From a bacterium (GTDB lineage Bacteria; Electryoneota; Electryoneia; Electryoneales; Electryoneaceae), in assembly GCA_043801585.1 (NCBI GenBank), contig JAZDLX010000197.1:1-46358 (forward strand): 46,358 bases of DNA, read 5' to 3'. Position numbers: made by a program. This document shows, one piece after another, positions 21,001-27,000 of this stretch. Within the stretch, counting starts at the first letter, position 1, and each line of letters begins with the position of its first letter.

Positions 21001-24000
21001 TTGCTGGGGATGATGCTTGTGGGTCTGGGTATTGAAGGTATCAAAAGGCTGTTCGGTATCTGATTCTGGAGCTGTTCGGCGATCGCTGGAGCTGTGTCTC
21101 CCATAGAAAATACACGGTTGGTCAAACTGTCTTGCCTCGCCCTTCACCCGCCCGTAGCTTGCCCACACATGTAAGTTCAGCGAAGTTGTCAACCGAGGGA
21201 GGTTTCCAATGTCCGTACGTGACAAGTGGGAATACTATCGAGATAAGAAGAAGGAATGGCGGTGGACACGGACCGCGAACAACGGTGAAATTGTCGGCGC
21301 GGCAACCGAGGGATACGTACGGCGCATCGATTGTCTCAGGAACGCCTACCGCAACGGCTACGAAGGCGGTGACGGCAGCGGAACCCGTGACAAGTGGGAG
21401 ATTTACAAGGACAGGAAGAACGAATATCGCTGGCGCAGGTACGCCACCAACGGCAATGTCGTCGGCGCGTCCACAGAAGGGTACATCAACCGTGCGGATT
21501 GTGTCGCCAACATGAAGCGGCACAATTTCCCGGGTGAAAAAAACGCGCGGATGAAATCGTAGTTGAGTAAACGTAGGGCTTGATAAACGCCGGCGGTCGC
21601 AAGATCACCGGCGTTTCCATGTCGAGAAATCCCGGGACGCGGTGGTCCCGGGCTACATGTTTCCCGGCTGAACCCGTGAAAACATTTCTATCGATTCCAG
21701 CCTCAATGTATTCAGTTCGGTGTATGGCCTTTGCTGCCCGCCAGCCTATCCAACCGCGGACTTGTCGCCGGAGGTCAGGGCAAGTTCCATCGGAGTGACC
21801 AGTTTCCGTTTCAGCAGTTCCTCGAGGACACGTTCCGTCACTTCCGTCCGAAACGCGAATTCATAGCGATGGTCAAAAACGAAGGCATTCAGCTTGAGAT
21901 AGACCATGCTCCGGCTTTCGTGGACGACGTTCTTCACCGAGGTGCCGATTGGCTTGGACAGAAGAACATACCGGCTTGTTGCGGCGGCGAGATGGGTGAT
22001 GGTACGGACACGGTAGAAATTCACGGTCGGGGGGAGGTGGAATTCGATGGCCACCTGGCAGCCCCGTTCACCCATGTTGGCGTTGACCACCGATTGGTTG
22101 ACGACTTCCGCGTTGGGCACCGAAACAATCGAATTTTCCGGGGTCAGGATGCGGACAGTGCGGAGACCGATGTTGACGACTTCGCCGTAATGCTCCCCGA
22201 TTTCAACCTTGTCGCCCACCTGGAACGGGCGGTCGAAAAGGATCATGATTCCGCCGAAGATGTTCTTCAGGATATCCTGGCTGGCGAAACCGATGGCGAT
22301 GCCGGCGCTGGCGGTGAGGGCGACAAGGGTCTGGATCGGGGGCGCGAAAATGTGGGCGACGATAATGTACAGGATGATCGTCCAGGAGGAGATCCGGATC
22401 ACCGGAATCATTGCCTTGATCGCAAGCCGCCAGCTTGTCCGCCGTTCGGCAACGGTTTCCAGGATGCGTGTGGCAAAGCGCAACACGACGAACCCGGCAA
22501 AAAAGATTACAACCGCCAGCAGGACCTTCGAAAACGTGAACGACCAGGTTCCATCCCCCGTGGAAGGTTGATTGAGGTACTCGATGTAGGGAGTGTTCGG
22601 TTCGAAAGGAGTCCCAAGTGTGTCCGACGAAACCGGAGTTGTCTGGAGATTTTGAGCCAGTGCCGGGACCGCGGTGAGTGATACGGCGACGAGTACTATT
22701 CCGAAAATGAGGCGGTGTGTGGTCATTCCAGCATGCTCCTTTCCTTGAGCACCGCAACCACGGGCCTGAACAGGAAGGGGTGAATCCGGTACCCTCCTAC
22801 GGATTCTTCGAGGACGCCCGTGTTTCTCAATCGCAAGAGTTGAGCACGGCTGACCTCCTCGTCCTGATGAAAGACCCGTGAGTGCTGATTCGCGTCGAGG
22901 AATTCATGCACCGCGAATGCCTGCAGGGTGAACAGGTCATCCGGATGGAAACTTCGAACGAAAGAGGGATCGAAGCTGATGTCGGGGGAGAGCCGCAGCA
23001 CTCCACCGTCATTGCCACGGATCGAGTGAAGCCAGAAGAGAATGGCCACGGTGATGTTTCCTGCTGCGAAACGGGAAAGAGACGAAAAGAACGCCGAAAG
23101 CAGCAACCGCTGGCGGTCCTCTTCCGTGCGGAGTCGCCGGTAAGCCCGGCTTTGGGCAATTTTTTCGTTTGGTTCGAAACGTATTTTAAAGCCGCTGGCC
23201 CGGCTGCGACGCATCAGCGCCTGGGTGATTTCCTCGGTGCTCAGATCGTTGAGCTGCAACACCCACTGCACCTGCCCGCCGATGCCCATCACCTTGTCGA
23301 GAAAAGACCACGAATAGGTCGTACACGTCAGAATCCAGAAAATTTTCGAAGAGGTCCGGGCGATCAGCAGAAGGAATCGTTGCAATGCTTCGAATCCGTC
23401 GATGGTGCGCAGGAAGAGGTTGTGGACATCTTCGAACACGATTACCATCCGCTCCCCTTCAAGGAGTTCTTTTTCGATTCGATTGATCGTGTCCGCCTTC
23501 TTCAATTTCAGCGCACGGCCGAGGTGCTGGGCGAACAGACGTGGGTCTTCGATCGTCTGGTCAAGGTCGATCCAGCAGATTTTATCCTGCTTGAAGTACT
23601 TGAGCAGGGCAATTTTAACGAGGGTGGTCCGGCCGCTTCCACGTTCGCCGACAATGGCTGTTGAAGCGATGTGCCCACGTCTCCAAAGCTCCACCTGACG
23701 GTTCAACTCCGCTAATTCCTTCTCACGGGAGACGAAAAACCGCTCGTCATCGAGGGGGAACAGCCGGAAGATTCTTTGGTAGACAAGGGGGAGTGCCTGG
23801 ATCTGTTCGTGCGCTTCGGTGATCAGTTGGAGCAGGCGTGGATCGACGGAAGTGTTCGCCATTTCAAGGCCGGAAAGACGGCGGATGTCGATGTAAGCCC
23901 CCCGGATCCAACGAAAAATCTGCCCGAACACCCGGCCGATGTTTTTTCCCAGGGTGCTGAAACCGCGAGCCACAGTGGAGCCGCCGTGGGTCAACCCCAA

Positions 24001-27000
24001 GCGGGTTCTCGCCTTCATCACACTGGCCTGCACGGCAAACGCACGGTCGTTGTCGATCAATTCGCGAACGCCGCCCTGATACCGGCGCAACCGTGTTCCG
24101 ATAGCGTCTACGGTCGTTCGGCCGAGCTTGTTCAACTCCTCCTGCAGCTCATCAACCTGCGCCAGGGCGCGGCGGAATCCATTCGAGAGTTCCGTTCGTG
24201 CCTTGCTTACCGGCGCCGTGTCACGCTTGCGGCCGAGCAGGTTTGAGGAGGTGTCGAGGGCGAACTGGACTACCTGATCGATGTCGGAGATGCGGGACGA
24301 CATTTCCGATAACGACCCTGTCGTCAGTTGGGTGAAGCGGAACAGGCCTCTCTTGAGGATGTCGAAGAGATCGAGCGAAACGGTGTCTGCGAGAGGGATT
24401 TCCGCGAAACGGTAGCGGGGGATTGGCCGTCGGATATCCAGTTTCGTGAGGATATGGCGTATCGGGTTCATCGCGCTGATGGAATCACGAACCCTTTGCA
24501 GCACCTCGTCCGGCACCGCATCCAGTTTTGCTTCGAGCAGCCGGTCGGCAACAGTTGGCAACCGCTCCTGTCGCAACTCCTTCAGAATCGACCGCGCATC
24601 CCGGTTGAGAAATGAGCGAAACTCATCATAACTATCAAGTTGCCTGGCAGCTCTTTGAGCGTTCCGTAGCGCCTCACGCATCCGCTCGAATTCAGGAAGG
24701 GTATCCCGTTGAATCCTGTCAGGGATGGCCTTGGCAACCTCTTCGCCGACACGCCGAGAACGAACCTCGAGACGCAGTAAATCAAGGTCCTTGCCCCACT
24801 CGTCACCTTTCAACAGGAGCACCTGCACCCAGCGGTAGGTTGCCTTGCGAAAGGTATGGTTTCTCGCACTCAGTTCCTGGTGCCAGCGATGCGAACTCCA
24901 ACTGCGGTTTGGAACGATGCGGGTTCCAGCAAAGGTCCAGAGGAAGCATATCCGTTCGATGATACGGTCACCCGTGTCCTCCAGATCGGGTGTGGACGGC
25001 GTGAGTTGTTGGGCGATTTCAAGTATTTCCGAGGCGAGAGTTTCCGCATCGAACGGCGCCAGGGGTTCGATGCCCTGCTCGCTCTCGTCCTCTTCCGGCA
25101 GAAGCCGCCGCACTCGGTCCACGGTGGCGATGTGGGTGGGCCGGATCGCATCCGCACTTGCGCGCACCTCTTCGGTCCATTGTTCATGCAGTGTATCCAG
25201 TACGATCGTGCCGAGGTGCATGCGCAGGAAGGCATCAGGAGAGATGCGCCGGATGATCGGACCCCGTTTCGAACTTCTCAGCAGCATGCGCAGAGCGAAA
25301 CGGATCCGCCACAGGATCACCCGGAACGGATCGCCGTGCTGGATATGCCGGTATTCTTCAGGTTCAAGCGGCAATTCGAGCATCGGTGGGAGTTCGGCGG
25401 AAATGTGCTGATACCGGGTTTCCCAACGTTCGACTACTTTCTCAAGCTCGAGTTGCACGGGGAGTGCGGCAAATTCAGAACTCCAATGGAGAAGCCGGGT
25501 CAACAGGTTGTCGAGGGTCTCGGAGGCTGGAGGGTTGTTCTCGTGGGTTTCCGTAACCCAGGCGGCGAGATCGCCTTCCAGGCTTGCAAGCTGGTCTTCC
25601 AGCCAGGTTGCCCGACGGTCATGCTCATCCTGCAGTGTGTTCCGCAGGGAGGGTTCGAAAGCTAACTTCAGTGATTCGAAGGTGTAACGTCTCACGGTAG
25701 CGCTCCCCTGGCAGAGTCTTTACTGCATCCAGCGTCTGGAGCAGGTACGCGGGTGACACGGCATTCCGGAGCACGTCGAACAGGGCTTTTCGACAGACAT
25801 CGGCTGGTTTAACATAAACCGTCCACGCCCTATCCTCTCTTTAATTGTGCAGTATTTCTGATATTGAAGTTGCGCTCGTGGAGAAGCCCCTGAAATGAGA
25901 ATGAATCCACGAATCTGAATCGGGAAAGGTGAAATGTGTCTCATGAGCCGGATGACCAGTCCTTTCCAGACGGTTTTCAGGAAGTGCGACCACCAACGGA
26001 CAGTCCCGATCCAGGCAATTCTCGACCCAATGATCCGGAACTCTGCCGAAAAACAACCTGTTTTCGATGCTTTGTTCCGGTCCAGGTGAAGGGGTGTAAA
26101 GCTTGTGCATCAGCTAAATCATGACTACAATTAACAAGCCTTAACGCCGGGGGAAGAGCGTGGGCAGGAGTCCCCGTTCGGGGATTTGGTCTATCTGCCT
26201 TGAGGTCGGAGAAGCGCATGCACCTCATCAGTGTCGAAAATGTTGAACCCGGCGCCATTCTGGGCCATTCACTCTACAATGAGCGAATGGACCTGATGCT
26301 TGCCACAGGGTATAAACTCACCCCCGAAATCCTTCACCTGCTGATAGAAAAAGGTTTCACCTACATCTATGTCATGGACCAGGTGGCGGACGACATCATC
26401 CCCGAAGAGGTGATCAATACGACTCTCCGCCAGGCCGCCACCAAACGGGTCGGGGACGCCTTCGAACAGGTCAGGCAGAATCCCATCTTCCGTACAATTC
26501 GCCCGAGTGAACTTAAGAAACGGCTTGAAGAAGATCCGAAGCTGAAAGACCTGCTGAACATGTCTCAGTTCAGAACAGTGGCGGTGAATATCATCGAGGA
26601 AATTTTCGCGAAAAATATCCGCATGTTTTCAACGTTGCCACTGCGTTCGGACGATGGGTACGAAGTGCAGCATGCCATCGATACGGCTGTACTTTGCCTT
26701 CTGATCGGGCAGCACCTCGGGATGCTGGCGCCGGAGTCACGCTCCCTGGTCACGGCGGCCCTGCTTCATGATGTTGGCAAGTCAGTGATTGAGAAATACC
26801 TGAAATCCATGAAGGATCATACCCAGGCGGATATCGACGCCATTCGCAGGGAACATCCGACCTATTCGATGCTGCTGGTGAAAGGGAGCGACGAATCGAG
26901 TTTCAAGGAACAGGTCACCGTTCAACAACATCATGAGCAACTTGACGGAAAAGGCTATCCGGGGGGATTGAAAGCGGATGACCTTCCGCCGCTGAAAAAA

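Follow-up and report, generated by a model that had tools for sequence, protein, structure and literature searches.

An AAA+/winged-helix protein with a helical arm, proposed as an auxiliary subunit of the MscS-family channel encoded next to it

The gene pair

Two overlapping genes of a bacterium of the family Electryoneaceae, found in a contig of 46,358 nucleotides (the window), encode a 990-residue AAA+/winged-helix protein and a 326-residue channel of the MscS family (Table 1). The first gene starts with GTG and shares an ATGA with the second at 22723–22726, and an AAGGAG lies 9 nucleotides 5′ of the channel ATG. Both open reading frames and their 4-bp overlap agree with an earlier note on this DNA, as do the Walker A sequence GERGSGRTT and the Pfam matches that it listed, with one exception: the ATPase was said to match no family over cut-off, and AAA_22 scores 27.5 bits, just above its cut-off of 27. 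A search for sigma-70 promoters and terminators gave none above chance.

Table 1. Positions of the genes and of observed or predicted features within the window
Feature	Position	Strand	Basis
Gene of the 990-residue arm, AAA+ and winged-helix protein, proposed as auxiliary subunit of MscS	22723..25695	-	
First repeat of the arm (residues about 1-262): bundle of helices, with a two-strand insert	24910..25695	-	AF2 models
Residues 120-150 of repeat 1: basic, amphipathic, possibly touching the membrane	25246..25338	-	hydrophobic moment 0.61
Second repeat of the arm (residues 266-548): long bundle of four helices, plus a beta-hairpin	24052..24900	-	
Linker helix (549-607) ending in basic amphipathic stretch	23875..24051	-	moment 0.81, family median net charge +10
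ORC/Cdc6-like AAA+ core with lid and winged helix (residues 633-990)	22726..23799	-	structure matches
Walker A, Arg replacing Lys (residues 683-691)	23623..23649	-	alignment of 244 homologues
Walker B, closed by E-D at 755-756 where the family consensus is E-N; D-E absent	23428..23445	-	
Residues 763-768, the loop following Walker B: predicted to make the chief contact with the MscS cage	23392..23409	-	complex model
Shine-Dalgarno-like AAGGAG for MscS start	22736..22741	-	within ATPase gene
326-aa MscS-family channel, partner clade: signal-peptide-like N-terminus, three TM helices, beta domain, alpha/beta cage domain	21746..22726	-	PF00924 E 1.3e-22; hydropathy; clade
Pore helix TM3 (136-159), intact Gly/Ala/Ser pattern	22250..22321	-	G/A/S fraction
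Cage alpha/beta surface predicted to bind AAA+/winged helix (243-257, 284-285, 295-303)	21818..22000	-	complex model

The AAA+/winged-helix domain

The C-terminal part of the 990-residue protein is predicted to fold as an AAA+ core with a helical lid and a winged helix, in the order of Orc1/Cdc6 and with the helical insert after strand 2. The ORC/Cdc6-like fold claimed before was reproduced by structure comparisons, in which the model matches Drosophila Cdc6 7jgr_G (VIA Z 16.3, rmsd 3.3, 245 aligned), 2qby_A (VIA Z 15.6) and, by Foldseek, 1fnn_A (3e-8). Orc1/Cdc6, TnsC and initiator-type AAA+ proteins have the same core, in which strands 2 and 3 are separated by two helices, and the lid and winged helix follow it. 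Unlike them, the 990-residue protein has decayed Walker motifs, its winged helix is predicted to sit on MscS instead of DNA, and its gene has no origin or transposase context. The Atlas clusters found for the domain are unnamed or generic AAA.

Over 244 homologues the P-loop glycines are conserved at 97–100%, as are, at 94–100%, R657, R830, N880, P636, Y639 and F643, while the Walker A lysine position holds K in 36%, R in 30%, A in 11% and I in 10%. Lysine is found in 38 of the 106 members of the protein's class, and arginine in the protein itself and four of four close relatives; Walker B D-E is found in none of 148 unique family members scored. Since the class has neither a conserved Walker A lysine nor a Walker B DE, its hydrolysis of ATP is unlikely. 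The earlier idea of an ORC/STAND-like ATP switch thus keeps its fold, and its switch is weakened. The family is not uniformly inactive, because the membrane-anchored class retains the lysine together with D-D in 18 of 23 members. The positions assigned, after the Cdc6 layout, to a putative arginine finger (805–808) and sensor-2 (881–883) hold no arginine in the 990-residue protein and hold one in 16 and 8, respectively, of the 106 class members.

STAND NTPases (NB-ARC, MalT, Avs, iSTAND) share with the protein an aromatic-x-G-R before the core, variable N-terminal domains and a fold similarity of Z 12–13, and the membrane-anchored class is further STAND-like in its G-N-P motif, with Pro at 881 in 35 of 36 relatives. 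The 990-residue protein differs from them in having G-N-I in the helical domain (G-N-[IVAL] in its class, instead of GxP, with proline outside the four commonest residues at 881 in 111 of the class), in having a channel as partner, and in lacking a C-terminal repeat sensor domain, as it ends with the winged helix like all the architectures. The term "mscs" does not occur in the iSTAND papers found.

The helical arm

By sequence comparison the arm is an internal duplication, its two repeats aligning over 164 columns (hhalign probability 73%, E 3e-5). The amphipathic segment of repeat 1, which has a median net charge of +10 over 71 family rows, may bind the membrane. Six of six full-length armless relatives checked begin with a basic stretch similar to that of the linker (N-termini of net +3 to +9). 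Residues 565–649, formerly described as disordered, become mostly helical with deeper alignments, and pLDDT falls below 50 only at 605–607 and 609–616.

The longest natural matches to repeat 2 are dynamin-family stalks (Campylobacter DLP 5owv/5oxf, MxA, MxB), with Z 11.5, rmsd 3.9 and 227 aligned residues for 5owv_C and Z 11.2, rmsd 4.3 and 244 aligned for 5oxf_C; we treat these matches as a lead only. These values are below the caution level of the tool for helical bundles, de novo designed bundles score higher (up to Z 13.8), the protein has no GTPase domain, and the relation has no sequence support. The arm gave no Foldseek match at E up to 0.001, no usable Atlas match, no Pfam family in more than three of 71 members, and only generic helical proteins among PDB sequences. 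The sensor role proposed for the "560-residue helical sensor arm" is weakened by the absence of the arm from 13 pairs that retain the channel and its replacement by other N-terminal parts elsewhere.

The partner channel

The channel shares the three-TM core, beta domain, alpha/beta cage and small-residue TM3 pattern of E. coli MscS and its paralogues MscK, MscM and YnaI (PF00924). Its beta domain scores 80.1 bits against a cut-off of 20.2, its profile matches MscK 7uw5 (E 2e-22) and 7dlu (1e-21), and all NCBIfam equivalogs fall far below cut-off. Residues G142, A144, G146 and G159 of TM3 are kept, and the G/A/S fraction of this helix averages 0.59 in the class, compared with 0.52 in non-partner MscS. 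The proposal that the pore is ligand-gated rather than tension-gated is thus unsupported, the small-residue TM3 being that of an ordinary MscS.

The partner channels differ from the E. coli family in forming a clade of their own, which unites partners from all five architectures and excludes 48 other MscS of the same loci and genome (FastTree support 0.835), in a distinctive cage motif, S-[RKP]-[YFW] at 251–253, and in an obligate-looking partner gene. In addition, tests at the level of motifs find the usual C-terminal cage motif, which leads into the cage-closing strand, in none of 159 partners (none of 106 in the class), compared with 30 of 48 non-partners.

Linkage and distribution

Of 166 loci whose flanks are long enough to judge, 164 have an MscS of this clade no more than 300 bp from the AAA+/winged-helix gene, an adjacency far beyond chance. 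Most downstream pairs (144 of 158) are spaced within 20 bp, the commonest arrangement being a 4-bp overlap (40 of 158), and linkage is kept with reversed gene order in four loci. In place of the seven homologues first reported there are thousands (2266 clusters at 50% identity, E up to 1e-30), and the pair is spread across many bacterial phyla, far wider than first seen. Fifteen of 21 genomes matching in one search gave weak partial matches (E above 1e-10) and were left out of membership. Another search returned no form longer than 1733 aa, a weak negative, as an open frame of about 1810 aa was found otherwise.

Within the family the picture drawn earlier holds: eight of 15 other genomes match, a same-genus genome does not, and MscS lies directly downstream in seven of eight relatives' loci, the eighth being cut by a contig end. 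In five family genomes that have no AAA gene, a partner-type MscS is missing too: the best match reaches 92.5 bits, against 438 for the channel of the locus. The module is absent from the orthologous site in a sister genome and is present in 52 of 251 genomes of one phylum; it is dispensable, and the gene pair travels as a unit. No relative was found in viral contigs with the one pattern set searched; plasmids yielded none with the domain of the 990-residue protein and three records of the membrane-anchored type. Among the 25 Pfam families shown for 18 membrane-anchored members there are no MscK-like periplasmic or TM domains.

Channels or ion/solute transporters make up 31 of 139 flanking genes, a raw count from kin-related loci; replication genes are absent from these 139. 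In some paralogues the same arm and AAA+/winged helix are preceded by AA_permease (E to 1e-49) or Na_H_Exchanger (E 7e-19), domains that we take to be of the SLC12/CCC and KefB/KefC-type CPA families, and trkH and trkA are found in operons with the CPA-fused form. The 990-residue protein has no transporter domain. To our knowledge, no known CCC or CPA member has such an arm or AAA+ module, or is paired with MscS.

The predicted complex

A model of the AAA+/winged-helix part with MscS scores 0.63, while the best of three controls scores 0.00; of 157 solved complexes 116 reach the mark that it passes, and so do 2 of 215 mismatched pairs, although these counts apply only roughly here. At least 94% of contacts are shared between runs and the partners have pLDDT of at least 75, with at most two copies of the heptameric MscS included. 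In the model, the domain would dock on the cage alpha/beta domain of one subunit, the contact being made by the loop that follows Walker B, by the winged helix and by the C-terminus; outside the loop, contacts are predicted at 798–802, 922–926, 941–943 and 986–990. G767 in the loop is invariant in all five architecture classes, and the clade motif of the channel falls inside the predicted docking surface. K258 and R259 of E. coli MscS presumably lie on the helix matching residues 295–303.

Predicted interface positions of the AAA+ domain are more conserved than the rest of it (entropy 1.37 vs 1.74; 0.5% of random sets are as low). On the channel side, the predicted interface varies less than the remaining cage in partners (1.08 vs 1.20) and more in non-partners (1.81 vs 1.56). 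Across the 25 top-ranked predicted contacts, inter-protein covariation (MI-APC, 154 pairs) is not enriched: its mean z is 0.10, a value that 30% of random sets also reach, in a test underpowered at 126 effective sequences. A correlation between the pairwise distances of both proteins (rho of 0.88 overall and of 0.78 within class) is not counted, because shared host ancestry can explain it. Gene linkage, a single MscS clade and the complex model together support the two-component module proposed before, with the AAA+/winged-helix part binding the cytoplasmic domain of the channel.

Discussion

Bacterial MscS channels, of which genomes keep many paralogues, are regarded as stand-alone valves gated by lipid tension. 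The recurring pair described here, sometimes fused to transporters, points to a so far undescribed subunit that controls the balance of salt and turgor. We consider it fairly probable that the 990-residue protein is a dedicated nucleotide-binding, cytoplasmic auxiliary subunit of the adjoining MscS, serving ion and turgor homeostasis, and not part of an infection-gated pore. The cage of the heptamer is open at its base, which up to seven copies would ring or cover. The conserved P-loop glycines and residues around the pocket suggest that nucleotide is bound in this clade, with little or no hydrolysis, so that the domain may act like a gating ring, in which nucleotide state sets either the threshold or the inactivation of a channel that still responds to tension. 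The duplicated arm would brace the subunit on the membrane through its basic amphipathic helices, as an optional coupling lever.

In TrkH–TrkA and KtrB–KtrA, a separate cytoplasmic nucleotide-binding ring regulates a K+ channel without needing hydrolysis; there the ring has an RCK Rossmann fold and the channel is of another family, whereas here the domain is AAA+/winged-helix and regulation is proposed only. A precedent that we count for the subunit reading is FtsZ, a cytoplasmic NTP-binding protein reported to bind the alpha/beta domain of MscS with low-micromolar affinity and to change adaptation and recovery (PMC4440785). FtsZ is a tubulin-like GTPase that is not co-encoded with the channel, in contrast to the dedicated, translationally coupled AAA+ partner described here.

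The transporter fusions raise a different reading, in which the signal runs in reverse: the MscS heptamer would be a tension sensor or scaffold, the AAA+/winged helix would read the shape of the cage, and the arm would pass the signal on to an ion transporter, which belongs to the same chain in CCC and CPA forms and would be bound in trans in the free form. The partner MscS of fused forms have lost the small-residue pore pattern (G/A/S 0.21 in three CPA-type, 0.31 in six CCC-type, against 0.59) and still keep the aromatic 253 and Pro259 of the docking motif, which suggests that MscS can sense tension on behalf of transporters. Fused and free forms have homologous arms, and CCC-like, CPA-like and TrkH-like genes occur elsewhere in the host genome. 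However, this evidence comes from just nine fused pairs, the channel of the locus has a normal TM3, the 13 armless pairs have no N-terminal output domain, and the free form has no transporter as constant neighbour, and we regard the reversal as unlikely. A fuller version is likewise unlikely: seven AAA+/winged-helix domains would form a mechano-transducing ring on the heptamer, where cage tension alters nucleotide state and the dynamin-stalk-like arm signals to cation-chloride or cation/proton transporters, the MscS of fused forms being a non-conducting tension receptor and that of the free form conducting or acting in trans. It would amount to a direct mechanical circuit for bacterial cell-volume control through SLC12-like transporters.

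The missing C-terminal cage motif and the decayed catalytic motifs of the class would also fit a protein that merely replaces the absent strand barrel, stabilising or assembling the heptamer with no regulated gating. We find this improbable, given that a pure scaffold need not conserve the P-loop glycines and pocket residues so strictly, and that it leaves the repeated transporter fusion unexplained. The earlier suggestion, a STAND-like switch with a sensor arm by which phage infection or a particular ligand would open the channel, draws on the similarity to NLR and Avs proteins, the G-N-P of the membrane-anchored class, and a patchy presence in a variable genomic slot. It is very hard to reconcile with the PADLOC result, negative for both proteins, with defence genes at only 2 of 139 flanking genes (type IIG restriction-modification and DUF1016), with a dispensable arm and no C-terminal sensor repeats, and with the transporter fusions and an armless clade in stable synteny among housekeeping genes. 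That the two genes are co-regulated neighbours whose products do not bind, as the negative covariation test and one CCC fusion without adjacent MscS (L147) would allow, is the least credible reading against linkage through five architectures and reversed order, a single partner clade with its own cage motif and a passing complex model.

If the auxiliary-subunit reading is true, this would be the first such subunit for the MscS family and would permit a direct test of cage-to-gate coupling. No description of an AAA+/MscS pair was found in the literature searched, in which subscription journals were thinly covered and a mention in a comparative-genomics supplement may have been missed. Since cultured carriers exist, the module can be tested now; they include Polaribacter haliotis (H9I45_09840), Fulvivirga sp. 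M361, Novosphingobium pentaromativorans (JI59_RS21590/21595) and Caulobacter sp. NIBR2454 (O5K31_RS18095/18100).

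Conservation and organization of the gene pair

The module formed by an AAA gene and an MscS gene is real and widespread. In the window, the two open reading frames overlap by 4 bp (ATGA), a Shine-Dalgarno-like AAGGAG lies 9 nt 5' of the MscS start, and the GC and GC3 of the pair are similar to those of the flanking genes. In G001, a sister genome of the same genus, both flanks are syntenic and the slot contains a 398-aa gene with the pair missing, which indicates that the two genes were gained or lost together. Within the family to which the window belongs, a single-protein query matched 8 of 15 other genomes; in the other families of its phylum it matched none of 25. 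Both the overlap and the patchy presence claimed in an earlier note on this DNA were thus confirmed, but the seven homologues that it counted were far too few: a profile of 37 homologues retrieved 2266 clusters at 50% identity with E ≤1e-30, and 4431 with E ≤0.001. Of the stretches found by a genome scan, 205 were confirmed and 80 loci kept; their titles name Calditrichota, KSB1, Ignavibacteria, Bacteroidota, Marinimicrobia, Nitrospirota, Aminicenantes, Spirochaetales and others; in the phylum of another genome, G041, 52 of 251 sampled genomes gave a match.

The last ~370 residues of the homologues are constant and the N-terminal part varies, giving five architectures: a helical arm alone (class a, ~1000 aa, the window's form); a short basic stretch only (class b, ~420–440 aa); a Na_H_Exchanger domain (two loci) or a TM domain without assignment (one locus) plus the arm (class c, CPA-type fusions, ~1500 aa), in operons shared with TrkH and TrkA; an AA_permease domain, which we take to be CCC/SLC12-like, plus the arm (class d, CCC-type fusions, 1670–1810 aa); and a signal peptide, long helices and several TM segments (class e, membrane-anchored, ~900–1100 aa), named from Polyangiaceae, Pendulispora, Caulobacter and Novosphingobium. 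At L031, L055, L069, L190, L203, L213 and L216 the AAA gene is broken up into at least two ORFs, through either assembly error or decay.

Features of the window and of related loci
Feature	Location	Strand	Remarks
AAA gene, 990-aa ORF	22723-25695	-	
MscS-family gene, 326-aa ORF	21746-22726	-	PF00924, E 1e-22
GC-rich hairpin	21624-21660		directly 3' of the MscS stop
Palindromic element, ~100 bp	20302-20404		long inverted arms; between DinB-like and Yip1 genes
355-aa ORF	28987-30054		GC-rich stretch; presumably IS110-family transposase-like
Two genes, 132-aa ORF between	30489-32904		taken to be flagellin-like and MerR-like, respectively
1670-aa protein	12939-17951		presumed to be secreted, with a C-terminal sorting-type tail
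398-aa gene in the slot of the pair	G001:C19:5021-6217		secreted, subtilisin-like (label by reading of sequence)
Free pair and CCC-fused pair	L049:9887-22059		one locus, convergent, TerC gene between
1465-aa fusion	L143:6062-10459		N-terminal TM domain matched neither by Pfam nor, with phmmer, by the L141 CPA domain
Multi-TM proteins, 407-422 aa	L141:10688-11956; L142:10548-11792; L143:13276-14499		upstream in 3/3 CPA-type operons; no Pfam match
Sister-clade MscS	L094:15114; L111:623; L062:8368; others		often in or beside the same operon

Linkage was scored in 170 genes with a visible C-terminal end, left after 10 twice-fetched loci were dropped, of which four were set aside for having less than 700 bp of downstream flank. 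A partner MscS (E <1e-25 against the profile of the clade to which the window's channel belongs; in fused classes, any MscS next to the AAA gene) lies no more than 300 bp away, in the same orientation, in 164 of the 166 remaining loci (in four of them upstream of the AAA gene), all gathered through the AAA gene and including kin that are not independent. The adjacency noted earlier therefore extends far wider. The exceptions are L085, whose partner lies 1.8 kb downstream, and the CCC fusion L147, for which none is in view. Among the 162 pairs left after removal of identical sequences, the gap is at most 20 bp in 144 of 158 downstream pairs, the 4-bp overlap being the commonest spacing. The reverse check, small but clean, covered five genomes of the family that lack the AAA gene: their MscS are all distant (92.5 bits at best, against 438 for the window's channel itself).

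A tree was built from 138 MscS, for which 35 of the 106 class-a partners were subsampled and the window's added. A single clade (FastTree support 0.835) unites the partners from all five classes, with 48 other MscS outside. Eleven armless pairs nest within class a, which makes the loss of the arm secondary. The sister clade of the partners comprises 22 sequences (support 0.997), and mixed heptamers of the two are possible.

Fold, nucleotide pocket and predicted docking of the proposed AAA+ subunit

AlphaFold2 modelled the 990-aa protein from 75 rows with a pLDDT of 87.9. Residues 633–990 form an AAA+ core, a lid and a winged helix; the nearest folds are those of Cdc6/Orc1 (Z 16.3 to 15.1), as the earlier note had it, and NSF-D2, TnsC, clamp loaders, NLRs and MalT follow (Z 14.6 to 12). 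Its weak Pfam matches to AAA_16, nSTAND3 and NB-ARC were also found again, but AAA_22 is marginally above the cut-off, not below it.

Among 244 homologues, the P-loop glycines are 97–100% conserved, as are P636, Y639, F643, R657, R830, H831, G835 and N880 at 94–100%, and Walker B ends in E (99%) followed by N (73%) or D (20%). The Walker A lysine position is occupied by K in 36%, R in 30%, A in 11% and I in 10%. Lysine together with D-[DE] occurs in 0/106 class-a versus 18/23 class-e proteins, and a Walker B D-E was found in none of the classes scored. From these motifs we infer that the window's class retains the nucleotide pocket and has lost efficient catalysis, which weakens the proposed ATP switch; class e may still be active. 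Membership tests place the 990-aa protein outside both the active AAA+ ATPases and the canonical STAND proteins.

The arm, folded alone (pLDDT 90.1, pTM 0.82), is built of two units that resemble each other (hhalign probability 73%, E 3e-5), both of them helical bundles that carry an insert of two strands. Two stretches, residues 120–150 and 560–610, are amphipathic and have a median net charge of +10 in the family. Among natural proteins, dynamin-family stalks align with unit 2 over the greatest length (5oxf_C, 244 aligned, rmsd 4.3, Z 11.2; 5owv_C, Z 11.5; MxA and MxB, Z 10–11), but designed bundles outscore them; sequence searches gave no support for a dynamin-family relation, and the resemblance of the modelled unit to these stalks is no more than a lead. 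The arm is better explained as a membrane-braced lever than as the ligand sensor suggested earlier, because 13 pairs lack it.

A complex of two MscS chains (60–318) with the AAA+/winged-helix part (618–990) scored 0.63, against 0.00 for the best of three controls. Of 157 solved complexes, 116 attained the score mark, as did 2 of 215 mismatched pairs; these counts are only roughly valid here. The runs share at least 94% of contacts, with a partner pLDDT of at least 75. No AAA+–MscS complex is among the PDB matches examined, so there is no sign that the model drew on a similar known complex. The predicted contacts join residues 243–257, 284–285 and 295–303 in the alpha/beta cage domain of one MscS subunit to 763–768, 798–802, 922–926, 941–943 and 986–990 of the AAA+/winged-helix part. 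Conservation at these positions exceeds that of the remaining AAA domain, and those on MscS are conserved in partners and not in non-partners. The docking on the cytoplasmic domain agrees with the earlier note, which was also model-based, so the agreement is not method-independent. According to PMC4440785, FtsZ in E. coli attaches to the bottom of the MscS alpha/beta domain and makes adaptation and recovery after inactivation 12% slower.

On balance, we favour a dedicated, catalytically decayed subunit that would still bind nucleotide, sit on the MscS cage and serve ion and turgor control. The module would presumably work like a TrkA/KtrA-type gating ring, a likeness in working only, as it belongs to none of those families.

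Possible alternative roles of the partner channel

The fraction of small residues in TM3 is 0.59 in classes a and b, 0.49 in class e and 0.52 in non-partners; it falls to 0.21 in CPA-type (n=3) and 0.31 in CCC-type (n=6) partners, which retain the aromatic and the proline of the docking motif. Given this pattern, the window's channel probably conducts, and the transporter-linked partners may be sensors or scaffolds. That MscS acts as a tension sensor for transporters, as the fusion partners would suggest, is an unlikely alternative to a cage-bound control subunit, the small-residue TM3 of the window's own channel speaking against it. Tested at motif level for the cage-closing strand, the C-terminal cage motif is present in 0/159 partners versus 30/48 non-partners; this would suit an AAA+ subunit that is purely an assembly lid, to which we nevertheless assign a rather low probability.

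Two of the 141 nearest flanking ORFs of class-a loci are pieces of AAA genes. Among the other 139, 21 encode further MscS, and a scan of the remaining 118 found two more MscS-type TM proteins, five CorA, one aquaporin, one TerC and one APC transporter, along with two defence genes (channels or transporters versus defence, 31 versus 2 as raw counts with no background rate). Other PADLOC matches in the flanks were rejected as shared domains of kinases, methyltransferases, ABC and OmpA proteins. With so few defence neighbours and no PADLOC match for either protein of the window, the infection-gated pore of the earlier note was not borne out, and a defence role appears very improbable. We give least credence of all to the two proteins not binding each other, for which speaks that covariation between them lent no support to the predicted contacts.

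No description of the pair was found among the papers listed by the literature searches, PMC3924187 and PMC9322971 included. Two repeats lie near the pair. The hairpin that follows the MscS gene occurs at 19 places in its own genome and is a short repeat that may double as a terminator for the convergent genes. The palindromic element is found at 20 places in its own genome and at many in G001, and looks like a MITE or REP-type repeat.
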